From a virus (Duplodnaviria; Heunggongvirae; Uroviricota; Caudoviricetes), in IMG/VR virus record IMGVR_UViG_3300047392_000113, positions 55,152 to 119,151 of that record: a stretch of 64,000 nt of DNA. One strand, given 5' to 3'. The notes below the pieces were generated by a model. That model had not been told where the DNA came from and made no database searches. It was given only the letters and a program-made list of their open reading frames with translations. The translations under genes and the position numbers were made by a program. Shown here one piece after another: positions 24,678 through 58,038 of the stretch. Each line of letters begins with the position of its first letter. The stretch's first letter is position 1.

Positions 24678-24687
24678 GGAGCTTACT

Positions 24688-26085
24688 ATGAAACTCGCAA
24701 AAAACATTCTCTTGAACACTGACAGCTACAAAGTCTCGATGTTCAAACAATATCCCGCTGGTACTACTGGCGTTTATAGCTACATCGAATCTCGTGGTGG
24801 TCGTTATGACAAAACCGTGATGTTCGGTCTACAAGCATTCATTAAGGAGTACCTGCTTGAACCAATCACCCAAGCCGATATTGATATTGCTGATGAAATT
24901 CTTACAGCCCATGGCGAACCTTTCAACCGAGAAGGATGGGAATACATTCTATCAGCACACGGAGGTTTCCTTCCTGTCGTTATTCGGGCTGTTCCTGAAG
25001 GCACAGTGGTTCCTGTTAAAAACGTTTTGGCAACTATTGAAAACACTGATCCAAAGGCGTTTTGGTTGACCACTTATCTGGAAACTGCATTGCTTCGTGC
25101 TGTGTGGTATCCTACTACTGTGGCTACTCAAAGCTACACTATTCGTAAAGTAATTCTTGACTATTTGGAGCGTACAGGTGACCCTAGTGGAATCGATTTT
25201 AAGTTGCACGATTTCGGTGCTCGTGGTGTGTCTAGCCTTGAATCTGCGGGCATCGGAGGTGCAGCACACTTGGTTAACTTCATGGGTAGTGATACTATTT
25301 CTGGTGTTCTGTATGCTCGTGAATACTATGGTGCTGGGATTGCAGGTTTCTCGATTCCTGCCGCAGAGCACAGTACAATTACTTCGTGGGGACGTGAAGG
25401 TGAAGTCGACGCCTACCGAAACATGCTTACCCAATTCGCAAAACCTGGAAGCATCGTCGCAGTAGTAAGCGACAGCTACGATGTATTCAATGCAGCTGGC
25501 AACTTGTGGGGTGATGAATTGAAAGCAGAGGTTGTTGCTTCTGGTGCTACTGTTGTTATTCGTCCTGACTCTGGTGATCCTTTGACTATTAACCAACAAT
25601 TGATCGAGATTCTTGGTCGTAAGTTTGGTTACACTGTTAACGGTAAAGGATTCAAAGTTTTGAACAACGTTCGTCTTATCCAAGGTGACGGTGTTAACGA
25701 ATTGAGCATTCGTTCTATCCTTGGTGGCTTTATGGCAATGGGTTGGTCTGCTGACAACATTGCATTCGGTATGGGTGGTGCTTTGCTCCAACAAGTGGAT
25801 CGTGACACTCAGAAGTTCGCAATGAAGTGTTCAGCTGCTCAAGTCAATGGTGTATGGGTTGATGTGCAAAAAGATCCTATCACTGATAGCGGTAAAAAGT
25901 CTAAAGCAGGGCGTGTAACCTTGTGGCAGTCTGGTGGTGAGTTTGCTTCTGGTGTGACTCCACCTTCTGGTTGGACTGATAAAGGTTTTGGTGGTTGGAC
26001 TGAAGCAATGCAAACAGTGTTCCGTGATGGTAAAATCATCCGTGAATACGACTTTGCAGAGGTTCGAGCCAACGCTAAAAAGTAA
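24688..26085 (+). CDS. nadV: Nicotinamide phosphoribosyltransferase (NAMPT/NadV).
   Basis: N-terminus NILLNTDSYKVSMFKQYP and overall 465-aa length typical of NAMPT. Adjacent to natV, forming an NAD+ salvage pair. Confidence 0.9.
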   Translation: MKLAKNILLNTDSYKVSMFKQYPAGTTGVYSYIESRGGRYDKTVMFGLQAFIKEYLLEPITQADIDIADEILTAHGEPFNREGWEYILSAHGGFLPVVIRAVPEGTVVPVKNVLATIENTDPKAFWLTTYLETALLRAVWYPTTVATQSYTIRKVILDYLERTGDPSGIDFKLHDFGARGVSSLESAGIGGAAHLVNFMGSDTISGVLYAREYYGAGIAGFSIPAAEHSTITSWGREGEVDAYRNMLTQFAKPGSIVAVVSDSYDVFNAAGNLWGDELKAEVVASGATVVIRPDSGDPLTINQQLIEILGRKFGYTVNGKGFKVLNNVRLIQGDGVNELSIRSILGGFMAMGWSADNIAFGMGGALLQQVDRDTQKFAMKCSAAQVNGVWVDVQKDPITDSGKKSKAGRVTLWQSGGEFASGVTPPSGWTDKGFGGWTEAMQTVFRDGKIIREYDFAEVRANAKK

Positions 26086-26216: not shown

Positions 26217-26384
26217 ATGTGGGATGACTTTAGTGACTACGAACTAGCCGAACTGGCTGGTCAGTATGGGTTGGAAGACAACCTAGTTTTTGATTATGAA
26301 CTTGGTCTTGCGAATCGTGATGAGATCGAGAAACTTTTGACAGAATTTGAATGGGAGATTGCAAATGCAGAATACAGCATCTGA
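26217..26384 (+). CDS. Small acidic protein (55 aa).
   Basis: ATG with GGAGAAAAT RBS. Overlaps the start of the following VWA gene by ~20 nt in another frame. Confidence 0.3.
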   Translation: MWDDFSDYELAELAGQYGLEDNLVFDYELGLANRDEIEKLLTEFEWEIANAEYSI

Positions 26385-28694: not shown

Positions 28695-29867
28695 ATGGAG
28701 TTTGTGATGAGTAAAGTTGACGCTGTGGTTCGCCGTGAGTTTGAGATTAAACTTGCTGAGATGTTCCCCGATACCCAAACGTCTGGGCAGGTATCTCGCC
28801 CCCAACTTATTGAAGTTATGGGTGCTCTAAAGACAGAGAAGTTCCCTCTCTGGCTTATGAAAAATAAAGTTGGTCGTGGTATTTACGCTATTGATGGTGG
28901 TAAAACTACAACTGTTGTTGGTAATACCGCATTGAAAGATGAACCCGTGGAATCATACGTTGTTGACTACACAAATGTAGAATCACTTATCCCTCTTAAA
29001 GATCCAAACTTTGTTCCATTCGGTAACTACACTGATTTGGAAAACATTATCAAGTCTGGTATTTTCTATCCTGCATACATCTCTGGTCCAACTGGTAACG
29101 GTAAGTCCACGATGGTCGAACAAATTTGTGCCAAGCACAAGCGTCCACTGATTCGTGTTAACCTGAACATGATGACTGACGAAGAACAACTCATCGGTTC
29201 CAAAACTCTTCAGAATGGAAACGTAGAAGTTGTGGAAGGTCCAGTTCTTATCGCTATGCGCACTGGTACAACTCTGCTGCTTGACGAAATTGACGCTGGC
29301 TCTGCTAACACTCTGTTGTGTTTGCAACCAATTCTCGAAGGTAAACCCTACTACTTCAAGCTGAACAACGAGATGATTGTTCCTGCCAAGGGTTTCAATA
29401 TCTGCGCCACTGCTAACACAAAGGGTAAAGGCTCAGACGATGGTCGTTATATTGGTACTAACGTACTGAACGAAGCGTTCTTGGAGCGTTTCGCTGTAAC
29501 CTTTGAACAGGAATATCCTAGTGCTAAGGTTGAAGTTAAGATTGTTAAGAATCTTATGGAATCTTACGGTTGTGCAGACGAAGAATTTGCAGAGACTCTC
29601 GTTAAGTGGGCTGATGCAATTCGTCGCACATTCGAAGATGGTGGTGTCGATGAGACTATTACGACTCGTCGTATGATTCACATCGTACGTGCCTTTGCGA
29701 TTTTCCAGAATCGTGCTAAGGCAGTTGAGTTGTGTTGCAATCGTTTCGACTCGGCTACTAAGGATGCGTTCCTGAAGCTGTACGATAACATTGCAAACCC
29801 TGCTCCCGAAGCACCTCCTGTAGTGGAAGCACCGACTCCTCGTCCTTCGGATGAAGTTCCATTCTAA
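28695..29867 (+). CDS. cobS: CobS-like MoxR-family AAA+ ATPase.
   Basis: Walker A GPTGNGKST, Walker B LLLDEIDAG, overall similarity to aerobic cobaltochelatase CobS / phage CobS proteins. Probable start MSKVDAV at 28707. Confidence 0.85.
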   Translation: MEFVMSKVDAVVRREFEIKLAEMFPDTQTSGQVSRPQLIEVMGALKTEKFPLWLMKNKVGRGIYAIDGGKTTTVVGNTALKDEPVESYVVDYTNVESLIPLKDPNFVPFGNYTDLENIIKSGIFYPAYISGPTGNGKSTMVEQICAKHKRPLIRVNLNMMTDEEQLIGSKTLQNGNVEVVEGPVLIAMRTGTTLLLDEIDAGSANTLLCLQPILEGKPYYFKLNNEMIVPAKGFNICATANTKGKGSDDGRYIGTNVLNEAFLERFAVTFEQEYPSAKVEVKIVKNLMESYGCADEEFAETLVKWADAIRRTFEDGGVDETITTRRMIHIVRAFAIFQNRAKAVELCCNRFDSATKDAFLKLYDNIANPAPEAPPVVEAPTPRPSDEVPF

Positions 29868-30869: not shown

Positions 30870-31202
30870 ATGGCTACGTTAGAAGAAGTAAAAGCATCCC
30901 AAAAATCGACCACTGGAGGTCGTAAATTTGACGGTGGTAAACTGCAGTATGGTTTACTCCCACCTTTGGCACTGGCAGAAACAGTAAAGGTTCTGACATT
31001 TGGTGCAGAGAAATACGAACCCGATAATTGGAAACAAGTACCTGATTCCAAGCGTCGTTATTTCGATGCCCTTCAACGACACCTGTGGGCTTACAAAGCA
31101 GGTGAAGAACTAGACCCTGAGTCTGGTATCCACCATCTGGCACATGCAATGTGTTGCCTGATGTTTCTTTATGAACACGATGTGAAGTACTCGAAGGAAT
31201 AA
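30870..31202 (+). CDS. DUF550-like nucleoside triphosphate pyrophosphohydrolase (MazG-related, dATP/dGTP diphosphohydrolase N-domain family).
   Basis: KFDGGKLQYGLLPPLALAETVKVLTFGAEKYEPDNW...HLAHAM resembles the conserved core of the phage dATP/dGTP pyrophosphohydrolase DUF550 domain. Confidence 0.45.
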   Translation: MATLEEVKASQKSTTGGRKFDGGKLQYGLLPPLALAETVKVLTFGAEKYEPDNWKQVPDSKRRYFDALQRHLWAYKAGEELDPESGIHHLAHAMCCLMFLYEHDVKYSKE

Positions 31203-42567: not shown

Positions 42568-45057
42568 ATGGAATTTTATACAAGCGTTCACCCCATGGGA
42601 GACAAGATGTTGGTTCGTGGGTATGATAAGGGGCGAGCATATCAGCGTAAGGTGGATTTCTACCCTACGCTGTATGTCACTTCTAAGAAAGAATCTTCTA
42701 AGTGGCGCACACTTGAAGGCACTATTGTTGATGAAGTAAAACCTGGAACCATCAAAGAGACTCGTGACTTTGTTAAACGTTACGAAGGTGTGCAGGGTTT
42801 TGATGTTTATGGTAATACAAACTACTCATACCAATACATCAGTGATATGTATCCCGATGACATCAAATGGGATATGGAAATGTTCAAGGTATTCACCATT
42901 GACATTGAGACATCTACAGAAGGTGGCTTCCCAGATATTCGCTCAGCCAACGAAGAAATTCTTCTGATCACAGTTAAGGATCTACAATCAAAGCGTATCA
43001 TTACGTTTGGCTGCAAGACCTTTGTACACAATCGTGAAGATCTAATTTATGTCCATGCAAACGATGAACGTCATCTGTTGCAGGAGTTTTTGGCATTTTG
43101 GGAAAAGAGTTATCCCGATGCCGTGACTGGTTGGAACACAGACTTCTTCGATATGCCATATCTGATTCGGCGTATTTCTCGTGAACTTGGTGACAAAGAA
43201 GCCGAGCGTATTAGCCCATGGCGTTATATCAACGAACGTAAAACCTTTATCAAAGGTAACGAAGAGCTTCATTACGATATTCTTGGTATTAGTCAGCTGG
43301 ACTATTTGGAACTCTACAAGAAGTACACCTATCAAAAACAAGAGTCTTATCGTCTTGACTACATTGCCGAGCAAGAACTTGGCGACAAGAAGAAAGAAAA
43401 CCCTGGAGAGTCTTTCAAAGACTTTTATACTGACCACTGGCAACAATTCGTAGAGTATAACATCCACGACGTAGAGTTGGTTGACAAGCTAGAAGATAAG
43501 ATGCGTTTGATTGAACTGCATCTGACTATGGCTTACAATGCCAAGATCAATCCTGAAGATGTTTACTCACAGGTTCGTATGTGGGATACGATCATCTATA
43601 ACCACTTACGCAAAAAGGGTATTGTTATCCCACAGAAGACTCACAGTGGCAAAGATGCGCAGTTTGAAGGTGCTTATGTAAAAGATCCAATCATCGGTGG
43701 TCACAAATGGGTTGCCTCGTTTGACTTGAACAGTCTGTATCCTCACTTGATTATGCAGTATAACATCAGTCCAGAAACTCTAACATCTGATAAACTAAGT
43801 GTTACTGTTGACAAGTTGTTGAACAAAGAAGTGGATACCTCACATTGCCACAAACGTGACTTGGCTCTAACTGCAAATGGTTGGTGTTATCGAAAAGACA
43901 TCAAAGGGTTTATGCCTGAGTTGATGGAAGAGATGTATAAAAACCGTTCCAAGTTTAAAAAGCAGATGTTGAAGATCGAACAGGAATATCAAAACGACAA
44001 GAGCAAGAAGCACTTGCTGAAAGATATCTCTCGTCTCAATAACTTGCAGATGGCTATGAAAATTGCCCTAAACTCTGCTTATGGTGCGATGGGTAATCAA
44101 TACTTCCGTTACTTTGATATTCGTATGGCTGAAGGTATTACCACTTCTGGTCAGTTGTCAATCCGTTGGATGGCTAACAAGTTGAATGCGTTTATGAACA
44201 AAACGCTAAAGACCGAAGGTGATGATTTCGTTATTGCGATTGACACAGACTCAATCTATCTTTCTCTCGAGAAGTTAGTAGAGACTGTTGCTGGTGATAA
44301 AGATACAACTGGTAAGATCAAGTTTATGGACAAGATCTGTGATGATGTATTCCAACCTTTCATTGACTCTGGTTACACTGAACTGTCTCAATATATGAAT
44401 GCTTATAGCCAGAAGATGGTTATGAAACGTGAGGTTCTTGCTGACAAAGGTATCTGGACAGCCAAGAAGCGTTACATTCTTCGAGTGCATAACTCTGAGG
44501 GTGTTCAGTTTGCCAAACCTAAGATCAAGGTGATGGGATTGGAGATGGTTAAGTCTTCAACTCCAGCTGTCATTCGTGATAAGTTGCACCAGTCTATTGA
44601 TGTTATTCTGGAAGGCGACGAAAAAGTACTACATAAGTATGTGTCTGACTTCAGAGAAAAGTTTGTTGAGTTGCCAGTTCAAGATATAGCATTCCCTCGT
44701 AGTTGTAATGGTGTAAAGCAGTATGCTGGTTCACCTATTTACCAAAAGGGAACACCGATTCAAGTGCGTGGTGCTCTGCTCTACAATCACTATTGTAAAC
44801 GTCATGGGCTTGATAGAAAGTATCAGGCTATCCGTGATGGTGATAAGATCAAGTTTGTGTATCTGCGAACACCGAATCCAATTCACGAGAACGTGATTGC
44901 ATTCCCTCAAGAGATGCCAAAGGAACTTGGACTTCACGACTACATAGATTACGACTTACAATTCGAAAAGGTTTTTCTTGATGCGCTTCAGATTGTTATT
45001 CAGCCACTGGGCTGGAAGACGCAAGAAGAATCTTCGTTGGAGGATTTCTTTGGATAA
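42568..45057 (+). CDS. gp43: Family B DNA polymerase gp43.
   Basis: MEFYTS (T4 MKEFYIS). Exo motifs FDIETS and YNIHDVEL. Pol motifs FDLNSLYPHLIMQYNISPETL, NSAYGAMGNQYFRYFDIRMAEGITTSGQ, IAIDTDSIY, KKRYIL and KIKVMGLEMVKSSTP. C-terminus EESSLEDFFG. Confidence 0.95.
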   Translation: MEFYTSVHPMGDKMLVRGYDKGRAYQRKVDFYPTLYVTSKKESSKWRTLEGTIVDEVKPGTIKETRDFVKRYEGVQGFDVYGNTNYSYQYISDMYPDDIKWDMEMFKVFTIDIETSTEGGFPDIRSANEEILLITVKDLQSKRIITFGCKTFVHNREDLIYVHANDERHLLQEFLAFWEKSYPDAVTGWNTDFFDMPYLIRRISRELGDKEAERISPWRYINERKTFIKGNEELHYDILGISQLDYLELYKKYTYQKQESYRLDYIAEQELGDKKKENPGESFKDFYTDHWQQFVEYNIHDVELVDKLEDKMRLIELHLTMAYNAKINPEDVYSQVRMWDTIIYNHLRKKGIVIPQKTHSGKDAQFEGAYVKDPIIGGHKWVASFDLNSLYPHLIMQYNISPETLTSDKLSVTVDKLLNKEVDTSHCHKRDLALTANGWCYRKDIKGFMPELMEEMYKNRSKFKKQMLKIEQEYQNDKSKKHLLKDISRLNNLQMAMKIALNSAYGAMGNQYFRYFDIRMAEGITTSGQLSIRWMANKLNAFMNKTLKTEGDDFVIAIDTDSIYLSLEKLVETVAGDKDTTGKIKFMDKICDDVFQPFIDSGYTELSQYMNAYSQKMVMKREVLADKGIWTAKKRYILRVHNSEGVQFAKPKIKVMGLEMVKSSTPAVIRDKLHQSIDVILEGDEKVLHKYVSDFREKFVELPVQDIAFPRSCNGVKQYAGSPIYQKGTPIQVRGALLYNHYCKRHGLDRKYQAIRDGDKIKFVYLRTPNPIHENVIAFPQEMPKELGLHDYIDYDLQFEKVFLDALQIVIQPLGWKTQEESSLEDFFG

Positions 45058-45598
45058 TATCCGAATCATTAAAACTGGAATCAATGTGTCAAAGATTTTG
45101 GCACAATTGAATGCACACCCAGAAGACTGGGGAAGTCAACTCAACGTGGCTGGAGTTAAGTCACTGCTTGATCGTGGATTTCCTCAGGTAGAAGCTGGTG
45201 TGCTTCAACTTGTTATGGGTGGTATAGAATCTATAGATCAGTACGTTGGAGATACAGAGATTTGTATTCCAACTCCTGCGATTGAAAGACATACTGAAGT
45301 TGTTCGATTCCTCAAACGCAACTTTAAGAAGTTCAGTCGTTGTGGTTTCCTTTCACTGCCAGTTGGTGGAGAAGTTGGAAAGCATATCGACATTGGCAGT
45401 TACTACCAAACTCGAGATCGTTATCATCTGTCCATCCAAGGCAGATACATATACACTGTAGGAGATGAATCTGTTACAGTGGAACCTGGAACCCTGTTGT
45501 GGTTCAATAATAAATTACCCCATGGGACTAAAAATGTTGGTGATTGCGTTCGTGTTACATTCGTTTTCGATGTACCACATTCCAAGAACAATCCATAA
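44981..45598 (+). CDS. 2OG-Fe(II) oxygenase / cupin-like protein. Start uncertain: an ATG at 44981 overlaps the polymerase 3' end by 77 nt, and alternatives are GTG ~45094 or ATG ~45216.
   Basis: HxD...H facial triad candidates (VGKHIDIG ... LPHGTKNV) and a C-terminal RVTFVFD strand. Confidence 0.45.
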   Translation: MRFRLLFSHWAGRRKKNLRWRISLDNIRIIKTGINVSKILAQLNAHPEDWGSQLNVAGVKSLLDRGFPQVEAGVLQLVMGGIESIDQYVGDTEICIPTPAIERHTEVVRFLKRNFKKFSRCGFLSLPVGGEVGKHIDIGSYYQTRDRYHLSIQGRYIYTVGDESVTVEPGTLLWFNNKLPHGTKNVGDCVRVTFVFDVPHSKNNP

Positions 45599-47522: not shown

Positions 47523-47842
47523 TGGGAGAACACCTCGCTAAACCTCCGTACACAGTTCTTCAAAGTGCATCAACTGGAGCTTACAGGCTAAAGTTGACAA
47601 GTGGTCCATACTCAGGTATAATCTTCTCTTACGGTGAGGTTAAGTTTGAAGAAATGGGTGATACTTGTAAGATGCATTTTGAATATGAAGTGCATGAAGA
47701 CGCAGGTGTTACCTATACTGCCACTGATCTTGAGCATTATCTTGGTGACTTGTTGCAGTTTATCATTGTTGACCAACTGCAACAAAATGAAATAACATAT
47801 ACTGGTGGAGTTGATGAGAATAGAACAACAGATTCTGAGTAG
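47522..47842 (+). CDS. Hypothetical protein (106 aa). gp40-like by position between uvsX and gp41.
   Basis: Position only. Confidence 0.3.
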   Translation: MGEHLAKPPYTVLQSASTGAYRLKLTSGPYSGIIFSYGEVKFEEMGDTCKMHFEYEVHEDAGVTYTATDLEHYLGDLLQFIIVDQLQQNEITYTGGVDENRTTDSE

Positions 47843-49215: not shown

Positions 49216-50550
49216 ATGGTTAAAGTATTAGTTGCACCAATCAAGCACGATTGTTCTCATATGCAAGGACAATTTCCAACAGAGAAAGATTACGATCTTC
49301 TAATTGAAGAAGATATGGATGTTTATATGCCTGAGATTCCAGGACATCCTGAGTTAACTGGTACTGAAGAACGTATCATTCTAAAGTTTCGTAAGAACTA
49401 CTTCACCAAAGAACAACAAGACCAAGCATATGCTGGTTTGCGTGAAGCTGCTGTTGAAACTCAGAACCGTGGTATGGCAGCTGGACCACGTGGTGAGAAA
49501 TTAGGTAATCGTGAGTGGGTTACTGAATACGAATCTGACATCATTGATTACTTCTCAAATCCAGGTGCTAATTTGTACGGAGATGATCCAGTAGAAGACA
49601 TTCGTGCAAACCATAAAGGCAAGAAGGAACAACCTTCTACACGAAATAATGTTTGGGGTATTCAGGCAGTAAAACGTGATAACTTTGATTTTGAAACTTG
49701 GGTAGATACTTGTAAGCAATTACCTGATAACGAAAAGAAGAAAGAAGTAGACCGTATCGTTAAGAAGTACGTTTGTTCTACTACTTACGCTAATGGAGTA
49801 TTCTCTGGAATCGCTGGTTGGTTTGATCGTTACCCACGTATCCCTTATGGTCGTGCAACTTCTTATACACAGCGTGAACCTGAGAAGTTTGCTATGTCAT
49901 TCCCATTCCTGCAGACTCTGTCTAAAGGTTTCATGGATTTATTACCACAACGTTTTGCTGCCCAGATGAATGCTGCAAGTAAGGTTGACAGTGGTTTCTT
50001 AGTTCCAGGAACTCCATTCACTACTATCACGGTGAACAAAACATTCCGTACTGCTTGCCACTTTGACGCTGGTGATTTGACATCTGGTTTGAGTAACCTG
50101 TTGGTTCTGTCTAACAATGGTAACTACTCTGGTTGCTATCTTGTTGCTCCAGAATATCGTGTTGCAGTTAACGTTCGTCCAGGTGACTTGTTGTTGATTA
50201 ACAACCACGAAGTTATGCACGGTAATACTGAAATCAAATTGCTTGACGAAGAAGCAGAACGTGTTTCACTGGTTTGTTATTTCCGTGAGAAGATGCTTGA
50301 ACTTGGTACAAAAGATTACGAAGATTTGCGTTATGAGTATGTTGAATCTCGTCGTCTTAACAAGGAACATCCAGGACATCTGAATGAAGATGGTTCTCAA
50401 CGTCACCTCTGGAATGGTGTTAGCCAAGCTATGTGGGAGAACGAAGAATGGTATGACTTCTTGCGTAACAAAGGTCGCCAAGATTTGGTCGATAAGTATC
50501 ACCCACCAAAGACAACTACTGTTGGTGCTCTCGAGAATTTCTTCGGATGA
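49216..50550 (+). CDS. Large 2OG-Fe(II)-dependent dioxygenase (candidate nucleic-acid base hydroxylase or other hydroxylase).
   Basis: HxD CHFDAGD, distal His VMHGNTE, and Arg ~14 residues later (RVSLVCYFR). AGGAG RBS. 444 aa with a long N-terminal extension. Confidence 0.5.
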   Translation: MVKVLVAPIKHDCSHMQGQFPTEKDYDLLIEEDMDVYMPEIPGHPELTGTEERIILKFRKNYFTKEQQDQAYAGLREAAVETQNRGMAAGPRGEKLGNREWVTEYESDIIDYFSNPGANLYGDDPVEDIRANHKGKKEQPSTRNNVWGIQAVKRDNFDFETWVDTCKQLPDNEKKKEVDRIVKKYVCSTTYANGVFSGIAGWFDRYPRIPYGRATSYTQREPEKFAMSFPFLQTLSKGFMDLLPQRFAAQMNAASKVDSGFLVPGTPFTTITVNKTFRTACHFDAGDLTSGLSNLLVLSNNGNYSGCYLVAPEYRVAVNVRPGDLLLINNHEVMHGNTEIKLLDEEAERVSLVCYFREKMLELGTKDYEDLRYEYVESRRLNKEHPGHLNEDGSQRHLWNGVSQAMWENEEWYDFLRNKGRQDLVDKYHPPKTTTVGALENFFG

Positions 50551-51146
50551 TCTTAGAAGCATTTCCAGAGCCGATCTATAAAGGTGAGATGGTTTTCTCT
50601 AACGAGGTACTGTCTTACTTTAATTCGGCTAGAGAAAAAGGTGGTTACAAAAACATCTCTGGTAACTATACATCCAATGATAGTTTTGTTTTAGAAAATG
50701 AAGAAATGTCTGGTGTAAAGATCCAAGCCCAACACCATCTAGATTACTATCTCAAAAATATCATAGGTGCTGGTAATGTTAGTTTGGAAATTACACAGTC
50801 TTGGTTAAACTTTAATGACTATGCTTCTTCACATCATACACACATTCACGTGAACAGTATTGTCAGCGGAGTAATCTATACATCACCAAATCCAGCACCA
50901 CTTGTTGTGTTCAGGAAGCAGGATTATTTCCCACTTAGACCGATGATAACTAATATGACAGAGTACAATAATCCTATGAGAGTTATTGATGTCAAGCAGG
51001 GTGATATTGTTTTGTTCTCTTCACAACTACCTCATGGTGTTCAAGCAAACAAAACGAATAAAACTAGAACATCTCTGGCATTTAATACTTTCTACAAAGG
51101 TGTTCTTGGAAGCGCACCAAACTTAACTCACTTGGAGATCTCTTAA
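50547..51146 (+). CDS. Second 2OG-Fe(II) oxygenase-like protein (PhyH-like).
   Basis: His-rich metal site candidates SHHTHIHVNS and a C-terminal GDIVLFSSQLPHGVQANKTNKTRTSLAFN signature typical of the oxygenase C-termini. Confidence 0.4.
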   Translation: MILEAFPEPIYKGEMVFSNEVLSYFNSAREKGGYKNISGNYTSNDSFVLENEEMSGVKIQAQHHLDYYLKNIIGAGNVSLEITQSWLNFNDYASSHHTHIHVNSIVSGVIYTSPNPAPLVVFRKQDYFPLRPMITNMTEYNNPMRVIDVKQGDIVLFSSQLPHGVQANKTNKTRTSLAFNTFYKGVLGSAPNLTHLEIS

Positions 51147-51862
51147 TGTGTGCCGTTATTGGGGCTGTTATTCAAAAGCCCACTACTAAAGATTTTGATA
51201 TGTTGAAGCGTGTCTTCCACGAATCTCGTATTCGTGGATTGCATGCCACTGGTATCTCGTTTCTACCGAAGTGGTCTACTGGTATCGAAACTATCAAAGA
51301 ACCTATCCCTGCAGATAAGTTCATTGAAAAGTTTATGCACAATGACAACTTAGCAGATATGGTTGCTGATGATGGAAACCTTTATCTAATCGGACATTGT
51401 CGTTACAGTACTTCTGATCTTGAGTACAACCAACCAATCGGTAATAGCTATATGAGCGTTGCACATAATGGTGTTATCACGCAAGAACTTCCAGAGAACT
51501 GGGAGAAGTTGTATGGTTACAAATGCGATGGTAAGAATGATACTGAATTGTTGGTGCACACATTTGCTTCTGGAAAGTCTCCGTTAGTAGAGTGGCAAGA
51601 TTCTTCTCTTGCAGTATGTGTTCTTAATAAAGGTAGAACACTTACAGCATTCCGTAATGGAAAGCGACCATTATATTTGACAAGTTTAGATAATGGTTGT
51701 ATAATTACTTCTACTGCCGATGTTATAAAACGTGCGGGTATCGAAGAAGAACCATTCTTACTCAATATGAATATGTATTGCGTCTTTGATGGTGATTTAA
51801 CTATGTCTATTGAAGCTGTGCCAATTGAAGGAGCAGTTGATCTACAAAATGCTATTTGTTAA
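51146..51862 (+). CDS. Class II (Ntn) glutamine amidotransferase domain protein.
   Basis: N-terminal nucleophile MCAVIG (Cys2 after Met removal), as in GATase type 2 / asparagine synthetase N-domains. 238 aa stand-alone. Confidence 0.6.
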   Translation: MCAVIGAVIQKPTTKDFDMLKRVFHESRIRGLHATGISFLPKWSTGIETIKEPIPADKFIEKFMHNDNLADMVADDGNLYLIGHCRYSTSDLEYNQPIGNSYMSVAHNGVITQELPENWEKLYGYKCDGKNDTELLVHTFASGKSPLVEWQDSSLAVCVLNKGRTLTAFRNGKRPLYLTSLDNGCIITSTADVIKRAGIEEEPFLLNMNMYCVFDGDLTMSIEAVPIEGAVDLQNAIC

Positions 51863-52487
51863 CTCTACAAAAGTCGAACAACTTATTGCCACTAGTCCAG
51901 CTGGTAAGAACACAAAGTTCTTATCGACTGCACATTCATTATGGTATCGGTTTAAGAATTATGAAAAGTGCCCACCGATGGCTTACGAAGACAACGGTGA
52001 TGTTGTATGCTTAATCTTTGCTACATTTAATCGAGATGGTTATGCCAATCTGTATGAGATTGTTACACTCGAAGGAAAAGAAGGAAAAGGATATGCGTCA
52101 AAGTGTTGGGATTCGTGGATCAAATATGCAGTCGAAGAACGAAAAACTCAACGTCTCAAAATCTCCTGCACTCCCTCATCTGTCAGCTGGCACTTACGGA
52201 ATGGCTTGGTCTTCTGGGCAGTTGATCCAACAGGTTCACTCCGTAGCGACCAGCCACTATTCCCTACACGTACAGAACAAATTGCCTACAGAGACAAAGC
52301 AATCGTAAATCCACTTCAAGCACTTCCACCTTACAAAGCTCGTGAACAATTCCGAGCAGAAGGATTAGAATCTTATTCATGGGGTGAGAAAAAGAAAGCT
52401 AAAACTCAAACTGCTATCGATGCAGTTGGTAAGGCATGGTTACGAGAAGCATTGATGGATCAACCATCACTAGAAGAATTTTTATAA
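51849..52487 (+). CDS. GNAT-like acyltransferase domain protein with C-terminal extension.
   Basis: Putative acetyl-CoA binding motif EGKEGKGYASKCWDSWIKYAVEE resembling GNAT motif A (Q/RxxGxG/A). Confidence 0.35.
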   Translation: MLFVNSTKVEQLIATSPAGKNTKFLSTAHSLWYRFKNYEKCPPMAYEDNGDVVCLIFATFNRDGYANLYEIVTLEGKEGKGYASKCWDSWIKYAVEERKTQRLKISCTPSSVSWHLRNGLVFWAVDPTGSLRSDQPLFPTRTEQIAYRDKAIVNPLQALPPYKAREQFRAEGLESYSWGEKKKAKTQTAIDAVGKAWLREALMDQPSLEEFL

Positions 52488-53506
52488 TGGATTATCGTTT
52501 AAAAGAGAATCGCCGAGAAGCGTTCATTCGTTGGTATGCTTGGTCGTTGAAATATGATGACTGCGATCCAGCAGTCTGGGCTACGAACTATCTACACAAT
52601 AGATACAACCACAATGATGAAGAACGTATTTGGCTTGCTTGGTTGTATGGTAATACTTACCAACTCCCAACTGCATGGGTTTTAAAGAATGAATTTCCTG
52701 ATTATGAATTAGCCACAGTTGATCGTATCACTCAATGGAACACAACTAATTATAAACGTCTGCGTTATCAAACAGACACAAAGTGGAACAAGGGACATCT
52801 ACCATCGATGTTCGAATCATATCAGAAGTTTATTGGTGATGGCACTCAACGTGAGAAAATGGAGTCTTATTATGGAGACAGTGAAAAACAAAATTTTACA
52901 AATTTGTGGAATGTTCTTAAAGGAGAGCTTCATAAGTTTGGGCGTTATAGTACTTGGTTCTATATTCAGCATCTTAAGCACACTGCTAATATTGTTGTTG
53001 AGCCCACTAGTCTTATGCTGGATGATTATGATGGCTCTCGCTCTCATCGTAATGGATTACTTTATGCCCTTGGACAAGAAGACGATGTGGATCGAAAACT
53101 CACTGCAGCGGAGTATGGAAGACTTGAATCGCACGGCACAAGCATTATCGAAGAAATGAAACAGCGTTTCCCTGAGTTGAAATCCCAGATTGATTTCTTT
53201 ACAATGGAAACATGCCTTTGTTCTTTTAAGAAAATCTTTCGTGAGAAGCATGGACGTTATCTTGGATACTATCTGGATCGTCAGGCAGAAGAAATTGTCC
53301 AAGCTGAGAAAGACGGTTGGTATGGTATCGAGTGGCAGGTTATGTGGGACGCACGTAATGAAACCATTGACTTGAGACTCGATGATAAACGTGGTATTGA
53401 TAAAGAAAGATTCTCTAACTTTATTCGTACAGGTAAAATGGAAAACTTAGGATGGATGTTCGATGATGAAGAACCTATTCTAATGGGATTGGAAGCGTTC
53501 GCTTAA
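52487..53506 (+). CDS. Hypothetical 339-aa protein immediately upstream of a P-loop kinase. Candidate DNA-base transferase (aGPT-Pplase-like) by context only.
   Basis: No motif recognised by eye. The assignment rests on gene neighbourhood. Confidence 0.25.
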   Translation: MDYRLKENRREAFIRWYAWSLKYDDCDPAVWATNYLHNRYNHNDEERIWLAWLYGNTYQLPTAWVLKNEFPDYELATVDRITQWNTTNYKRLRYQTDTKWNKGHLPSMFESYQKFIGDGTQREKMESYYGDSEKQNFTNLWNVLKGELHKFGRYSTWFYIQHLKHTANIVVEPTSLMLDDYDGSRSHRNGLLYALGQEDDVDRKLTAAEYGRLESHGTSIIEEMKQRFPELKSQIDFFTMETCLCSFKKIFREKHGRYLGYYLDRQAEEIVQAEKDGWYGIEWQVMWDARNETIDLRLDDKRGIDKERFSNFIRTGKMENLGWMFDDEEPILMGLEAFA

Positions 53507-53516
53507 AGGAAATACT

Positions 53517-54125
53517 ATGTCATTTGTTGATAAATTGGGTGTGCAGGATCAGATTAGTGTTCAACTTATTAAGAACACTTTAAAGACTCGTAAAATTATT
53601 GCTGTAGGTGGACAACCTGGAACTGGTAAGACTACCCTATTCCGTAAGTATATGGAAGGTAAAGACTGGATCGTTGGTGAGCCAGCTAAGCTAGTCTCAG
53701 CTTCTTACAATGCAGATCGAGATCTATACATCCTCGGTAAATATGATGAAGGTGAAACCTTTGCTGGAACAGATCGTCTTTCTATGGCGGTTCAACCACC
53801 TCTTCAAGAATGGGTTGCCTCTCACAACTGCAACATCCTTTTCGAGGGAGATCGAGTCTTTAATCAGTCTTTCTTGGAGTTCTGTATGGGACTACCGAAT
53901 ACAGACTTACAGGTGGTCTATTTGAAGGCTCCGAAGACTCTTCTAGAGCAACGATATAAGGATCGAGGATCCGAACAGTCCGAGCAATTCCTAAGAGGGC
54001 GAGAGACTAAATATAGTAATCTATTATCGAATTTTGAGTTAATGCCCTATATTACTGAGTTCAGCAATACTAACTTAGAGGAACAAACGAAAGTCCTAAC
54101 CTTCTTGGATAAACATCTAGGCTGA
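53517..54125 (+). CDS. P-loop kinase (polynucleotide-kinase / 5-hydroxymethyl-dU DNA kinase-like).
   Basis: Walker A IIAVGGQPGTGKTTLF similar to the T4 Pnk kinase N-terminus (IILTIGCPGSGKSTWA). 202 aa, with no phosphatase domain. Confidence 0.55.
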   Translation: MSFVDKLGVQDQISVQLIKNTLKTRKIIAVGGQPGTGKTTLFRKYMEGKDWIVGEPAKLVSASYNADRDLYILGKYDEGETFAGTDRLSMAVQPPLQEWVASHNCNILFEGDRVFNQSFLEFCMGLPNTDLQVVYLKAPKTLLEQRYKDRGSEQSEQFLRGRETKYSNLLSNFELMPYITEFSNTNLEEQTKVLTFLDKHLG

Positions 54126-54147
54126 GGTTAGGGCTTTCTGGGAAGCT

Positions 54148-54846
54148 ATGAATTTCCTAGAGAAAGCCAACTTCGACTGGATGGAAATGCTCAATTTTTA
54201 TGAGCGTCCATTTAGAGCTAAACTCATTCCTGCGAAAATCTGGAGAGACTTAGACGAGTATGAAAATGACTCGGCTGGTCTCTCAAACTATTTTAGGAAG
54301 TGGAAAACTAAGATAGAGTTTAGAGATCCACCTAAAAAGTCTAAACTATGGACCAAGTATGTAGCTGTGGGTGGCGAATACGCACCAGATGAGAGACAGT
54401 GCGCTATTCAGATTTACACGTTGAACTTCGACAAACATGAGTTCGACCAGAAGACTTGGGATAAATTTAAGTATCGTGTCATTCAAACTTTGATGCACGA
54501 GATGATTCACTTCATGCAGTATGATCGTCGTTTTGACGAATCCAGTGGTTACGTAGTCCCATATAAAAGAGTAGGGCATTCTTTAAAGGACGCTGAACGT
54601 AGATACCTATCAGAGTTCGATGAGATTCAGGCATATGCTCACTGTGTCTATCTCGACTATAAAATGAACAAACCTAATGTTCCTCTGCACATACTATTGA
54701 ATCGTTGCAAGACAAAACGAGACTCCTCAACTCTACACTATTTCTTAAAGACGTTCAACTACGACTTTAGAAACAACATCTCCCCTCAAAAAATTATTCA
54801 GCAAATCGGCAAGTGGGATAGAAAGTATAATCGACTAACTAAATAG
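54148..54846 (+). CDS. HExxH zinc-metallopeptidase-like protein (SprT/Wss1-like).
   Basis: TLMHEMIHFMQYD motif with a downstream Glu/His. 232 aa. Confidence 0.45.
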   Translation: MNFLEKANFDWMEMLNFYERPFRAKLIPAKIWRDLDEYENDSAGLSNYFRKWKTKIEFRDPPKKSKLWTKYVAVGGEYAPDERQCAIQIYTLNFDKHEFDQKTWDKFKYRVIQTLMHEMIHFMQYDRRFDESSGYVVPYKRVGHSLKDAERRYLSEFDEIQAYAHCVYLDYKMNKPNVPLHILLNRCKTKRDSSTLHYFLKTFNYDFRNNISPQKIIQQIGKWDRKYNRLTK

Positions 54847-54873
54847 TAGATCTACTAATTCGGATAAAGATTA

Positions 54874-55596
54874 ATGAGTGCTGCTTCAGACAAATATGAA
54901 AAAGACGTTGCTGATAACGTCGATAAAATTCCAGGTGTTACTGCTATTCGTCCACCTGGAGACACAGCGTATGCTGATGTAAAAATCACTTACAAGAAAG
55001 TCACTTCTTGGATGGAAGTGAAGATGAATCACACTGACAATTTGTCTAACCCTCGTGTATACTATGAGAATGGTATGTGGAAGACTACCTATAAAACTCC
55101 ATCCGCTAAAGCTGCTGTTGATATCCTAAACAAAGACCCAAAGACTAAGAAGTTTCTTAAGGATATCGCTGAGTTCTCTGGCATCCCATTTAGATCTCTA
55201 AAGATTCCTACCACTAAAGGTGGTTTAAAGGAAGAGGGAGCAGTTCCACTTCACATCATGAAGAAGTTTTTCGATCAACCAAGCGTTAATCGTTATATCG
55301 CTAATAGTGAAAACGTAGACTTAGGTAAGGTAGTAACCGAACACTACACTAAAGGTAAGGCTGAGCCAGCATACTACATGCAAGCAGGTGATGACTTTTA
55401 TCGTATCTCAAATACAGACCCATTCAAATTAGGTGTAAGTATTCCACTATTGACTGGTCGTGGAGATTTCAAGGTTCGAGTTGCAACACGTTCTGAGTTC
55501 TATGAGGTACAAGCTGAGATCAAGATCGCTCATATGCCATCCAGCAGATACTCAGTGAAACCTGGAACCAACAAGACTAATCCGTTTTTAAAATAA
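54874..55596 (+). CDS. PD-(D/E)xK nuclease-like protein.
   Basis: PGDTAYADVKI ... WMEVKMN fits the PD...ExK pattern with ~20-aa spacing. 240 aa. Confidence 0.35.
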   Translation: MSAASDKYEKDVADNVDKIPGVTAIRPPGDTAYADVKITYKKVTSWMEVKMNHTDNLSNPRVYYENGMWKTTYKTPSAKAAVDILNKDPKTKKFLKDIAEFSGIPFRSLKIPTTKGGLKEEGAVPLHIMKKFFDQPSVNRYIANSENVDLGKVVTEHYTKGKAEPAYYMQAGDDFYRISNTDPFKLGVSIPLLTGRGDFKVRVATRSEFYEVQAEIKIAHMPSSRYSVKPGTNKTNPFLK

Positions 55597-55603
55597 CTCG
55601 GAT

Positions 55604-55611
55604 TATAAATA
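55604..55611 (+). promoter_or_regulatory. Exact T4 late promoter octamer TATAAATA upstream of the capsid-targeting-motif gene cluster.
   Basis: TATAAATA 28 nt upstream of the 55639 ATG. Confidence 0.5.
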
Positions 55612-55638
55612 AGATTATTACTTTATAGATGGATTCCA

Positions 55639-56418
55639 ATGAAAGATTACAAACAATTCCTAAGAGAATTGCCGTCCAAAACTGTCGTTTTAGCGTGCGG
55701 GAGATTTAATCCTCCTACATTAGCCCATGAAATGATAGTGAAGACTGTCAAGAAACTGGCTGAGTCGAAAGGCGCTGACCACGTAGTCTATGCATCCAAT
55801 GTAAGCGATGCGAAAAAGAATCCTCTATTAGTAGAAAAGAAACTTCAGTACCTAGAACTGGTATTCCCTAAGACCAACTTTGTTGAGAGTGGGGATAACG
55901 TCGGTGAGGTTATTAAGAAGCTGAAGGAAAGTTATAAGAATATCATCGTTGTCACTAGCGCTGACAAGGTTCAATCATTGAAGAAATATATGGTTGAAAC
56001 TGTATCCATTGTTGACAAGGATCCAGACAGTGAAGACTCTGTTAGAAGTCTGGCATCAAAGGGTTTATACGAAGAGTTTAAGAAGAATCTTCCTACTTCT
56101 ATTCGTGAACTTGATAGTCGTCGCTTGATGAATGATATGCGTATTGGTTCTGGATTGGAACCGATCAAAGAACAGATTAACTTGGTAAAAGATAGTCTCA
56201 GAGAACAGTATTTTAGAGGTGAGATCTTCAATATAGGAGATCTTGTTGAAAACTGTGGCGTTGAATATCAGATTGTTAAACGTGGTTCAAATCACTTGCT
56301 TTTGAAAGACGAATCAGGTAAACTTGTATCTAAGTGGATTCAAGAAGTTACACAAAAAGATATTAGATCAGATGAACCTTTCTTTAAGGAATCGTTCAAA
56401 GAGTGGAGAAAGAAATAA
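55639..56418 (+). CDS. HIGH-motif nucleotidyltransferase-fold protein (paralog A) with T4-like capsid targeting sequence at the N-terminus.
   Basis: N-terminus MKDYKQFLRE matches T4 IP capsid-targeting sequence MKTYQEFIAE. ACGRFNPPTLAHEMIV is a (T/H)xGH nucleotidyltransferase motif. Paralogous to the 59030 ORF. Confidence 0.5.
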   Translation: MKDYKQFLRELPSKTVVLACGRFNPPTLAHEMIVKTVKKLAESKGADHVVYASNVSDAKKNPLLVEKKLQYLELVFPKTNFVESGDNVGEVIKKLKESYKNIIVVTSADKVQSLKKYMVETVSIVDKDPDSEDSVRSLASKGLYEEFKKNLPTSIRELDSRRLMNDMRIGSGLEPIKEQINLVKDSLREQYFRGEIFNIGDLVENCGVEYQIVKRGSNHLLLKDESGKLVSKWIQEVTQKDIRSDEPFFKESFKEWRKK

Positions 56419-56864
56419 TGGACGAGTTAAGAACAAGAATTAAAATTTTACTTGCCAATGCTACAGTTATGTACTATAAGGCACATCAGTTCCATTGGAA
56501 CCTTGAAGGCATCGAATTCACTCAGTACCATGAATTCTTTGGGGATATTTACACTGATGTGTATGCTTCAGTAGACCCAATTGCAGAATTGCTACGTAAG
56601 CTAGATGATTACGCTCCAGTTAGTATTGACGAATTGTACAAATTTAAAACACTTGAAGAAGAAACTACTCGTGTTGTTCTTCTAAAAGATATCCTTGTCA
56701 GTTTAATCAAAGCAAATGACGAAGTTCTTTCTAATTTGAATAAAGTGTTTGAAGTTGCGAATGCAAACAAACAACAAGGTGTGTGTAACTTTATCGCAGA
56801 TAGAATAGATACTCACCAAAAACATGGTTGGTTCCTAAAGGCATCAGCCAAAAAGGTAGGATAA
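56418..56864 (+). CDS. Dps-like ferritin (DNA-binding protein from starved cells family).
   Basis: LLANATVMYYKAHQFHWNLEGIEFTQYHEFFGDIYTDVYASVDPIAELLRKLDDYAP matches the Dps ferroxidase-site helix pair (H..HWN...F...HE..). Confidence 0.75.
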   Translation: MDELRTRIKILLANATVMYYKAHQFHWNLEGIEFTQYHEFFGDIYTDVYASVDPIAELLRKLDDYAPVSIDELYKFKTLEEETTRVVLLKDILVSLIKANDEVLSNLNKVFEVANANKQQGVCNFIADRIDTHQKHGWFLKASAKKVG

Positions 56865-56865
56865 A

Positions 56866-58038
56866 ATGAAATCATTTATCGATTTTCTAAAAGAAGAAGC
56901 CGAAGAAGGTGCTAAGTTAAAGCACATTCACCACGCTGAAGATCGCCCATTGATGCATGGTGCAAGTGGTTTTGAGCACACTCATGAAGCATTGACAAAA
57001 GCGCATGAACATATGAAAGCTGGTAAAAAGTCCAGCGACTTGACCATGAAGTATGATGGTTCTCCATCAGTTGTTTATGGTCATCATCCAGAAACAAAAA
57101 AATTCTTCGTTGCATCTAAGTCTGCATTCAACAAAGATCCAAAGATCAATTATACTCACGAAGATATCGAAAAGAACCATGGACATGCTCCAGGTCTTGT
57201 TACTAAACTAAAAGCTGCTCTTGATCACCTACCAAAGATTGCACCAAAGAAAGGTGTTTATCAGGGTGACATTATGCACAGTGGTGACGTCGAGAAAAAG
57301 AAAGATGGCGTCTCTTTCAAACCAAACACTATCACATATACGGCTAAAGGTGATCAAGCCAAAGCCCATGAGAATGCTAAGTTAGGTATTGTCACTCATA
57401 CCAAGTATGAAGGTAAGACAATGGCTTCTATGAAAGCTACACCTAATGTTAGCGACAAAGAATTTGGTCACCATAAAGATGTAGCACATCATACTGCTGA
57501 ACACGATACATCTAAGATCAGTTATCCAGAAAAGGCTCAGAACGAATTCCAAAGCCATATGGATAAGGCAAAAGAAATCCACGATAAACATGGCGCAGAA
57601 ATGTATGATGCTGCAAAGCCACATCGTGGTGAGAATACTCATCTAACTACTTACATTAACAGCACTGTTAAAAATGATGAGAAGCCTTCTGCAGAAGGTT
57701 TACAAAAGCACATAACTTCTCAAGGAGAGAAGGCAGCTGCTAAAGTTAAGACAGACAGAGCCAAATCCGCTAAAATGTCTGAACATCAATCTCAAGTTGA
57801 TCACATCGAACAGAATAAAGAACACTACAATAATCTTCTAACGATGCACGATCATTTACAAAAAGCCAAGAATACTCTAGTGAAACATCTAGAAACTCAC
57901 GAAGGTGGTTATGAACACCACATCAATGGAACTAAATCAAAACCAGAAGGGTTTGTTGTAAACCACAAAGAAGAACCTACCAAGTTGGTTAATCGTGCTG
58001 AGTTTGCAAAGGCTAACTTTTTAAAGGCAAAGAAATGA
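56866..58038 (+). CDS. His/Lys-rich protein with capsid-targeting N-terminus and covalent-nucleotidyltransferase-like motifs (KxDG ... EGFVV ... KxK). Possible RNA/DNA ligase-like enzyme.
   Basis: N-terminus MKSFIDFLKE (CTS-like). LTMKYDGSPSVVYG (motif I-like) and PEGFVVNHKE...KANFLKAKK (motif IV/V-like). ~35 His in 390 aa (HIHHAED, HTHEALTKAHEHM, HHTAEHD...). Confidence 0.4.
   Translation: MKSFIDFLKEEAEEGAKLKHIHHAEDRPLMHGASGFEHTHEALTKAHEHMKAGKKSSDLTMKYDGSPSVVYGHHPETKKFFVASKSAFNKDPKINYTHEDIEKNHGHAPGLVTKLKAALDHLPKIAPKKGVYQGDIMHSGDVEKKKDGVSFKPNTITYTAKGDQAKAHENAKLGIVTHTKYEGKTMASMKATPNVSDKEFGHHKDVAHHTAEHDTSKISYPEKAQNEFQSHMDKAKEIHDKHGAEMYDAAKPHRGENTHLTTYINSTVKNDEKPSAEGLQKHITSQGEKAAAKVKTDRAKSAKMSEHQSQVDHIEQNKEHYNNLLTMHDHLQKAKNTLVKHLETHEGGYEHHINGTKSKPEGFVVNHKEEPTKLVNRAEFAKANFLKAKK

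Follow-up and report, generated by a model that had tools for sequence, protein, structure and literature searches.

What might a row of oxygenase, amidotransferase, kinase and transferase genes do inside the replication module of a T4-like phage? The question is raised by a 64,000-nucleotide stretch of a Caudoviricetes genome (positions 55,152 to 119,151 of IMG/VR record IMGVR_UViG_3300047392_000113; hereafter the window), in which the replication genes gp55, gp47/46, gp45, gp44/62, regA, gp43, uvsX and gp41 follow one another in T4 order, and in which an island of eight open reading frames (ORF1 to ORF8, Table 1) lies downstream of gp41. A preliminary description of the island, made from the letters alone, had put forward two hypotheses: a DNA hypermodification pathway (hypothesis A), or an RNA-repair system in the style of T4 polynucleotide kinase (Pnk) and RNA ligase (Rnl) (hypothesis B). 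Here we present a computational analysis of the island, from which we consider it quite probable that ORF1 together with ORF3 to ORF7 encodes a pathway by which a T4-like phage hypermodifies thymidine after replication.

Known pathways of thymidine hypermodification share a common route: 5-hydroxymethyldeoxyuridine (5hmdU) is phosphorylated by a kinase to 5-phosphomethyldeoxyuridine (5-PmdU), which is the central intermediate, and an amino acid:DNA transferase (AADT) then replaces the phosphate (PMC8989533). In phage PaMx11, an AADT, a 5-hydroxymethyluracil DNA kinase (5-HMUDK) and a GNAT make 5-acetylaminomethyl-dU (5-AcNmdU) in this way (PMC8989533). For metavirome contigs without a dUMP hydroxymethylase, Lee et al. 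proposed that 5hmdU is made in situ by a TET enzyme, and metavirome contigs pair TET_JBP with such genes and with glutaminotransferases of unknown function (PMC8989533).

By analogy with characterised homologues, the first three steps in the window would run as follows: ORF1 would hydroxylate thymine in the phage DNA to 5-hydroxymethyluracil, ORF6 would phosphorylate the new hydroxyl to give 5-PmdU, and ORF5, working by covalent catalysis through a conserved cysteine, would let an N- or O-nucleophile displace the phosphate. Beyond these steps, we infer that the nucleophile, in the version we prefer, would be ammonia freed from glutamine by ORF3, yielding 5-aminomethyl-dU, and that ORF4 would N-acylate this amine to 5-acetylaminomethyl-dU or a related amide. 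Such a route would converge on the PaMx11 base 5-AcNmdU without using glycine or flavin adenine dinucleotide (FAD), and the modified DNA would resist host restriction. ORF7 would be a zincin-like hydrolase whose task, at a guess, could be to trim an intermediate or to clear away enzyme-DNA adducts that have become trapped.

Dioxygenase, kinase and transferase

The preliminary description saw in ORF1 a large 2-oxoglutarate (2OG)-Fe(II) dioxygenase and asked whether it sides with the TET/JBP, AlkB or PhyH clades. It is a TET/JBP enzyme: it matches PF12851 Tet_JBP at E=1.4e-23 (83.4 bits, Pfam cutoff 34.9), and the residues that bind iron and 2OG, H282-x-D284, H335 and R349, are invariant across its homologues and align with those of CcTet and human TET2. 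The same two proteins are its closest matches in the PDB, human TET2 when searched by profile and CcTet when searched by single sequence. Full-length homologues with 40-47% identity occur in Stenotrophomonas phage DLP_6, Caulobacter phage Cr30 and Phage C48C1 (loci L001:6057-10347, L002:8938-12385 and L003:9001-17894, the last being Cr30), and in cultured T4-like phages the 444-aa TET is annotated as 'SNF2 DNA repair protein' or 'hypothetical protein'. Phage thymine (T) dioxygenases have been demonstrated experimentally, and their clade C1 is linked to glutamine amidotransferases (GATases), to P-loop kinases and to AADTs (PMC13229309). We predict that ORF1 converts thymine to 5-hydroxymethyluracil in DNA.

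The kinase that would act next is ORF6, which matches PF18751 Ploopntkinase3 (31.4 bits, cutoff 27) and carries a GGQPGTGKTT P-loop whose G32, P34, G37, K38 and T40 are invariant. Whether this protein is closer to 5-HMUDK or to Pnk was decided by hhalign. Against the verified 5-hmdU DNA kinases it aligns with 94.3% probability over 123 columns (M6 gp54) and 95.9% over 114 columns (PaMx11 gp49), and these alignments include the GKY...G..GTDR and EGD motifs, whereas T4 Pnk, taken as the control, aligns with ORF6 solely over the 24 residues of the P-loop. ORF6 is also shorter (202 aa against 301 aa for T4 Pnk) and lacks a phosphatase domain, and a tblastn search of 50,697 phage records at E<=1e-3 found no T4-type Pnk. 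The kinase is thus 5-HMUDK-like, and it is predicted to phosphorylate 5hmdU in DNA.

These comparisons bear directly on hypothesis B, in which ORF6 would be a polynucleotide 5'-kinase acting together with the KxDG ligase-like DUF6267 protein encoded 2.7 kb downstream. The DUF6267 protein does have invariant KxDG, EG and K..R motifs that are compatible with a ligase-like nucleotidyltransferase. However, besides the match of the kinase to Pnk at the P-loop only and the missing phosphatase domain, the partners that gene fusions elsewhere give to DUF6267 are ORF8 and a cytidylyltransferase-like protein rather than a kinase, and comparisons of DUF6267 with T4 Rnl1 and with PDB sequences detect no similarity. 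We consider RNA repair by this pair very improbable; the DUF6267 protein at 56866 may be ligase-like, with ORF8 rather than ORF6 as its partner.

ORF5, which begins at 52487, had been described as a protein of no recognisable family, with a comparison to the aGPT-Pplase families suggested. It belongs precisely there: it matches PF18724 ADDT (E=4.4e-22, 79.4 bits, cutoff 26.2), the family now called AADT, about as well as the verified transferases PaMx11 gp46 and M6 gp51 do, and it matches phrog_3271 at E=7.5e-55. In the crystal structure of PaMx11 gp46 the catalytic residues are D24, E243, T244 and the covalent nucleophile C247 (PMC11472151). ORF5 keeps all four of these residues as well as F143-G144, the FG motif of helix alpha-9, and is accordingly predicted to replace the phosphate of 5-PmdU with a nucleophile. 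The two residues by which gp46 contacts glycine are exchanged (W146 to Y and K150 to F), so the donor of ORF5 should not be of the glycine type. We had at one point taken these two exchanges as a sign of a donor other than an amino acid, an argument that we dropped when a wider alignment showed them to be a subfamily trait common to the serine-transferase group.

Amidotransferase and acyltransferase

ORF3 was recognised in the preliminary description as a stand-alone class II amidotransferase beginning MCAVIG, and this assignment holds. GATase_6 (E=3.6e-9) and GATase_7 (E=1.5e-6) both score above the Pfam cutoff, Cys2 stands at the nucleophile position, and the family invariants are C2, R86, T89, N108-G109 and D132, of which R86 onward have their counterparts in R73, T76, N98-G99 and D123 of GlmS. 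The protein has no fused acceptor (synthase) domain, and among its 2,222 homologues the best 120, with lengths of 232-247 aa, likewise all stand alone. ORF3 is predicted to be an ammonia donor, and its acceptor is inferred to be ORF5 or the DNA substrate of ORF5. The more distant phage homologues of the GATase (PaP3-like phages, Vibrio phages, Sinorhizobium phiM6) were considered as a clue to its role and set aside; they sit in amidoligase, ATP-grasp and gamma-glutamyl clusters unrelated to DNA modification.

Class II GATases depend on an electrophilic acceptor, and PurF, which displaces pyrophosphate from phosphoribosyl pyrophosphate, is chemically parallel to the proposed ammonia-using AADT. 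Our preference for ammonia as the nucleophile comes from four considerations: the GATase is intact and therefore needs such an acceptor, with no synthetase domain present to provide one; the AADT substrate is the sole activated intermediate of the pathway; ORF3, ORF4 and ORF5 overlap one another; and a GNAT is present while an FAD lyase is absent from the cluster.

That GNAT is ORF4. The preliminary description called it GNAT-like, and a GNAT fold is likely: the protein has an ExxGxA-like motif, followed at the C-terminus by a tail of about 55 aa that is basic and helical, but the Pfam GNAT score of 20.0 bits falls just under the cutoff of 20.7. Its start is most likely the ATG at 51849 (212 aa), because homologues start likewise, and a tblastn search with ORF4 against cultured phages gave no match. 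We predict that ORF4 N-acylates (acetylates) the amine once it has been installed.

Gene linkage in related and unrelated phages

A scan of IMG/VR with ORF1 returned 301 relatives, of which the best 80, with 72-93% identity, were fetched. Every sufficiently long related locus has the order uvsX-gp41-TET-GATase-GNAT-AADT-kinase-HExxH. Since all 80 loci represent one lineage, this synteny says little about function, and linkage in unrelated phages is the stronger evidence. The trio of TET, AADT and kinase recurs in two such phages. In Cr30, a long-form TET, an AADT (PF18724, E=1.3e-52) and an ORF6-like kinase lie within 9 kb, and in Mycobacterium phage VioletZ, genes 2-4 (L095:785-3465), which adjoin the terminase, encode a Tet_JBP-like protein, an AADT and the archetypal PF18751 kinase, annotated as 'adenylate kinase'. 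In the window itself, Tet_JBP, ADDT and Ploopntkinase3 are found within 5 kb of one another, and for rare, mutually associated families this is far beyond chance.

The preliminary description had allowed for profile searches placing these proteins in unrelated metabolic families with scattered homologues; what we find for ORF1, ORF5 and ORF6 are DNA-modification families, clustered both in the relatives and in unrelated phages. One could still suppose that the island is a set of unrelated auxiliary metabolic genes (a hydroxylase of proteins or small molecules, an asparagine-synthetase fragment and a nucleotide kinase) that became neighbours through dense packing. ORF2-type oxygenases and cupin hydroxylases are indeed scattered over the window, and packing is tight throughout the phage. 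However, Tet_JBP, ADDT and PF18751 are families of DNA modification, and they co-occur in unrelated phages and in published metavirome surveys, which leaves this explanation hardly credible.

Two further observations concern these phages. In Quesadilla, a relative of VioletZ, the same type of kinase follows a ParB-like protein and a 7-deazaguanine (DpdA/QueCDE) cassette instead. The window also encodes, at 30870-31202, a protein of the dATP/dGTP diphosphohydrolase N-terminal family (PF18909, E=1e-34), and in Cr30 a member of this family (L003:11196-11723) lies between TET and AADT, so that a link of PF18909 to DNA modification or to control of the nucleotide pool is possible.

Points against the pathway and alternatives

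Several points weigh against the pathway as we propose it, and the first group of them concerns the base that is modified. O'Toole et al. found that T-dioxygenases linked to GATase, kinase and AADT genes need ParB and that some clade C1 enzymes lacking ParB are inactive (PMC13229309). In the window a co-located ParB-like gene was not found among the non-structural ORFs scanned. Absent from these ORFs, too, were a C5-cytosine methyltransferase and a thymidylate-synthase-like hydroxymethylase, which speaks indirectly for thymine as the substrate. The kinase belongs to PF18751 and not to PF18748, the family of M6 gp54, or to PF18747, the ViI type, and in Methylophilales phage Melnitz a PF18751-like kinase adjoins a pair of C5-methyltransferase and TET, so that the PF18751 clade may also serve 5-hydroxymethylcytosine (5hmC). 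Moreover, the window is part of a genome, the rest of which could encode a C5-methyltransferase, a dUMP hydroxymethylase or a ParB.

An alternative has cytosine as the target: a C5-methyltransferase encoded elsewhere would make 5-methylcytosine (5mC), from which ORF1 would produce 5hmC by oxidation, for hypermodification by the kinase and transferase. Phage TETs of clades A and B do act on 5mC (PMC8256090), Melnitz combines a C5-methyltransferase with Tet_JBP and a PF18751-like kinase, and only 64 kb of the genome is seen here. In Melnitz-3 (L089:3481-7561) the genes stand in a row, an HhaI-like C5-methyltransferase, a 328-aa Tet_JBP, a 427-aa protein and the PF18751-like kinase, between DNA polymerase and RecA/UvsX; this row, in a cultured marine phage, is likely a cytosine hypermodification cluster. 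However, Melnitz has another, short form of TET, missed by tblastn with ORF1, and the AADT family has been characterised on 5hmU-derived substrates only. The scanned ORFs of the window include no C5-methyltransferase, and none lies less than 9 kb from the homologous TET of DLP_6, Cr30 or C48C1, where neither this enzyme nor ParB is annotated or detected beside the TET; among phage 5mYOX neighbourhoods, just 6% have a C5-methyltransferase (PMC13229309). We thus regard cytosine as an unlikely target.

The second group concerns the nucleophile. ORF5 belongs to the FGR(Y/L/M) subfamily of AADTs, which includes the serine-transferring ViI type; its FGRY and GSRSHRNGL motifs are common to the AADTs of ViI-like phages, Cr30 and VioletZ, and this membership makes an amino-acid donor about as likely as ammonia. 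Fusions of the GATase to an AADT or to any other acceptor domain are absent among the best 120 of the 2,222 homologues, and hhalign finds no significant similarity between ORF4 and the PaMx11 acetyltransferase gp48. The pathway could therefore share its first three steps with our proposal and differ afterwards: ORF5 would install a free amino acid such as serine or glycine, the GNAT would acetylate its alpha-amine, and the GATase would have another role, for example to amidate or trim the added group or to supply nitrogen elsewhere. The AADTs characterised so far all work with an amino acid or a polyamine (PMC8989533), and ORF5 shares the FGRx and GSxSxRNG motifs with the ViI-like serine-transferase group. 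Set against this, a carboxylate can be amidated only with the help of an ATP-dependent synthetase domain, which is missing here, ORF5 has other residues in place of W146 and K150, which contact glycine in gp46, and the cluster has no tailoring gene that depends on pyridoxal phosphate (PLP), FAD or radical S-adenosylmethionine (SAM), although some relatives have acquired radical SAM genes. We judge the amino-acid version a serious contender, with a chance somewhat below even.

Two last points concern the reach of the proposal as a whole. The participation of ORF7 is weakly supported, given that its synteny across the 80 loci mostly reflects vertical inheritance in one lineage, and the pathway as a whole is predicted from family memberships, catalytic residues and gene linkage.

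The tailoring genes that accompany the long-form TET differ between phages. In DLP_6 the long-form TET stands beside a TET-associated glycosyltransferase (TAGT) and a sugar nucleotidyltransferase, in C48C1 beside a UDP-galactopyranose mutase, and in Cr30 its neighbours are an AADT, a TAGT-like gene, an inositol-1-phosphate synthase and a kinase. Perhaps a long-form T-dioxygenase that is independent of ParB acts as a common primer for swappable tailoring modules, which would be sugar in DLP_6 and C48C1, amine in the window and mixed in Cr30. Combined with the second half of our proposal, in which ammonia from the GATase is fed directly into the AADT on 5-PmdU and the GNAT then acylates the product, this makes a joint idea that we put forward tentatively and whose truth as a whole we hold to be doubtful. 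The isolates DLP_6, C48C1 and Cr30 are candidates for the experimental detection of modified thymine.

Limits of the cluster

Hypothesis A of the preliminary description thus survives in its core, with a TET/JBP dioxygenase, an AADT and a 5-HMUDK-like kinase, whereas the second oxygenase is a variable accessory gene and the PD-ExK protein falls outside the pathway. The second oxygenase, ORF2, matches PF13759 (2OG-FeII_Oxy_5) at E=1e-16 and phrog_81 at E=2e-34, and it occupies this position in about 7 of the 80 related loci, with 32-46% identity. It is probably a variable accessory oxygenase and not core to the pathway. ORF7 keeps its place in the cluster in every relative whose locus is long enough, and its metalloprotein motif, H117-E-x-x-H121, proved invariant.

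ORF8 had been proposed as a nuclease that spares modified DNA and so forms part of the pathway. Its E9, D35 and E48-x-K50 are invariant in the small family that an exhaustive search recovered, and in a profile match of this family to the Hjc-type resolvase 7bgs (E=0.04) these residues are aligned. However, the gene is present in only 5 of the 80 related loci, and elsewhere its domain is attached C-terminally to DUF6267 proteins and also forms the C-terminal part of a 1,568-aa protein with a cytidylyltransferase-like domain. The genes that follow ORF8 in the window are a cytidylyltransferase-like gene (55639-56418) and DUF6267 (56866-58038). Because its domain is fused to kin of these next downstream genes, ORF8 is assigned, on domain architecture, to the neighbouring DUF6267 / cytidylyltransferase-like module and outside the hypermodification pathway. 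The cluster proper therefore consists of ORF1 and ORF3 to ORF7, inserted between gp41 and the DUF6267 module within the replication/recombination block; in Melnitz, too, DUF6267 lies downstream of gp41.

The neighbouring module has features of its own. PHROG 455 covers DUF6267 and the cytidylyltransferase-like protein alike, and the invariant residues of DUF6267, KxDG (K62, D64, G65), EG (361-362) and K373..R377, resemble the motifs of ligase and capping nucleotidyltransferases, while sequence and profile searches of the PDB and an hhalign comparison with T4 Rnl1 gave no match. The module as a whole (54874-58038), with its PD-ExK, cytidylyltransferase-like and DUF6267 proteins, may be a system for nucleic-acid end-processing or ligation. 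A ferritin/Dps-like gene (56403-56864) lies between the cytidylyltransferase-like gene and DUF6267.

In the relatives, the cluster has received insertions that are all absent from the window: a conserved gene of about 150 aa without a family match, between AADT and kinase (45 loci); radical SAM genes (CxxxCxxC, PF04055), singly or as two, in 4 loci, for example L008:6881-8392 and L036:12870-16354; and a 242-aa insert in 9 loci. The variation in the radical SAM and 150-aa genes suggests different end products within one phage lineage.

Comparison with known systems

Metavirome studies (Lee 2021; O'Toole 2026) have described clusters of TET/JBP, kinase, AADT and GATase before, and GNATs, helicases and DNA polymerases are among their neighbours (PMC13229309). 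What is particular here is the T4-like genome, the long-form dioxygenase without ParB, and a set of GATase, GNAT and zincin without an FAD, PLP or radical SAM enzyme. The metavirome 5mYOX clusters (PMC13229309; PMC8989533 Fig. 2 sequences 22-25) resemble the window in that thymine would be oxidised in situ and then passed to a kinase and an AADT, in carrying a GATase of unknown role, and in having no adjacent C5-methyltransferase. Unlike them, the window has no detected ParB, its dioxygenase is of the 444-aa long form shared with DLP_6, Cr30 and C48C1, and its cluster sits in a T4-like replication module together with a GNAT and a lineage-specific zincin-like gene.

With gp46-gp49 of PaMx11, which make 5-AcNmdU, the window shares the catalytic Cys/Glu/Thr/Asp of the AADT, a homologous kinase and, probably, a GNAT-fold acetyltransferase. 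The differences begin with the origin of 5hmdU, which in PaMx11 comes from a dUMP hydroxymethylase and in the window is predicted to be made by TET. PaMx11 then reaches its amine with glycine and an FAD lyase (gp47), where the window has a GATase and no FAD enzyme, and the GNATs are not detectably related in sequence, while the AADTs fall into different subfamilies (FGPW in PaMx11, FGRY in the window). The 5-NeOmdU pathway of Salmonella phage ViI uses the kinases gp67 and gp243, the serine:DNA transferase gp247 and the PLP decarboxylase gp226. ORF5 is about 28% identical to the AADTs of ViI-like phages and has the same subfamily motifs, but the window lacks a PLP decarboxylase, its kinase belongs to PF18751 rather than PF18747, and its 5hmdU is predicted to arise after replication.

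In trypanosome base J synthesis (JBP1/2 and a glucosyltransferase) and in DLP_6 (TET and TAGT), as predicted for the window, a TET/JBP enzyme oxidises thymine in DNA as a priming step; the chemistry that follows would in the window be phosphorylation and nucleophilic substitution, not glycosylation. In T4, the genes for glucosylation of hydroxymethylcytosine (gene 42, alpha/beta-gt) are likewise embedded in a replication and recombination block, yet there the base is cytosine, and it is modified in the nucleotide, prior to replication. The preliminary description placed the island where T4 has beta-glucosyltransferase and dCMP hydroxymethylase, but this analogy is loose: T4 has its genes 42 and beta-gt between gene 43 and uvsX, thus upstream of uvsX, and what lies downstream of gene 41 is dmd, gene 61 and dam.

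Locus layout and other genes of the window

All eight ORFs of the island were confirmed at their coordinates and strand (Table 1), and the same genes were called independently by the Joint Genome Institute (JGI) on an identical metagenome contig. The motifs first noted in ORF1, ORF3, ORF6, ORF7 and ORF8 were likewise verified, with key residues invariant across homologues. Neighbouring ORFs either overlap by 1-14 nt (14 nt for ORF3/ORF4 and 1 nt for ORF4/ORF5) or are separated by 10-27 nt, although packing is this tight across the window and is not by itself distinctive of the island. The G+C content of the island resembles that of the remaining window, so that nothing points to a recent foreign origin. 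A near-identity DNA search of the island against the 50,697 phage records gave no match, and the phage has no close cultured relative; the best distant matches to the window are Phage C48C1, DLP_6, cyanophages and Melnitz. PADLOC and NCBIfam scans added nothing specific.

Table 1. Features of the island at 49216-55596, with positions counted in the window.
Feature	Position	Strand	Description
ORF1	49216..50550	+	444 aa, long-form TET/JBP 5-methylpyrimidine dioxygenase; PF12851
ORF2	50547..51146	+	199 aa, 2OG-Fe(II) oxygenase of PF13759 type, variable accessory gene
ORF3	51146..51862	+	238 aa, stand-alone class II (Ntn) glutamine amidotransferase; GATase_6/GATase_7
Promoter, sigma-70 type, TTGACAAGT...TATAAT	51677..51705	+	12/12 match; within ORF3, about 145 nt upstream of ORF4
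ORF4	51849..52487	+	212 aa, GNAT-fold acyltransferase (predicted)
ORF5	52487..53506	+	339 aa, amino acid:DNA transferase (AADT, formerly aGPT-Pplase); PF18724
ORF6	53517..54125	+	202 aa, P-loop kinase; PF18751 Ploopntkinase3
ORF7	54148..54846	+	232 aa, HExxH zincin-like, lineage-specific; no Pfam match
ORF8	54874..55596	+	240 aa, PD-(D/E)xK nuclease-like; no Pfam match

The promoter in Table 1 is one of three perfect TTGACA-N17-TATAAT promoters with a common extended -35 element, TTGACAAGT; the others lie at 20628-20656 and 47594-47622. It is perfect in 58 of 65 relatives, while the GATase protein encoded over it is merely 56-66% identical in nearly all of them, and this conservation despite divergence of the protein suggests that the promoter is real and would drive GNAT, AADT, kinase and HExxH. 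A scan for promoters and terminators yielded no operon boundaries; promoter-like sites, two perfect promoters excepted, are fewer than in shuffled sequence.

Elsewhere in the window, 23703-24677 encodes a fusion of a nicotinamide mononucleotide (NMN) adenylyltransferase-like domain and a Nudix domain (CTP_transf_like + NUDIX), and the adjoining 480-aa ORF (24643-26085) resembles, in our own reading, a nicotinamide phosphoribosyltransferase, with which it would presumably form a phage NAD+ salvage pair. An AAA_5/CbbQ_C ATPase (28695-29867) adjoins a 738-aa acidic protein (26347-28563), and we take the two to resemble CobS/CobT-like pairs, which many marine T4-like phages have. The gene that immediately follows the DNA polymerase, a cupin resembling Asp/Arg beta-hydroxylases (44978-45598), is a further one of the oxygenase type.

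Significance

If ammonia is indeed fed into the AADT, a function would be assigned to the unexplained GATases that recur in TET-linked hypermodification clusters. The compact cluster without ParB offers a test bed both for the role of these GATases and for the action of long-form TETs on thymine in the absence of an activator, and its enzymes are candidate tools for the site-selective chemical tagging of thymine. For the phages themselves, a widespread T4-like lineage, with 301 relatives in IMG/VR, joins those predicted to hypermodify thymine after replication, and the DNA of such phages may behave abnormally in sequencing, restriction and cloning.

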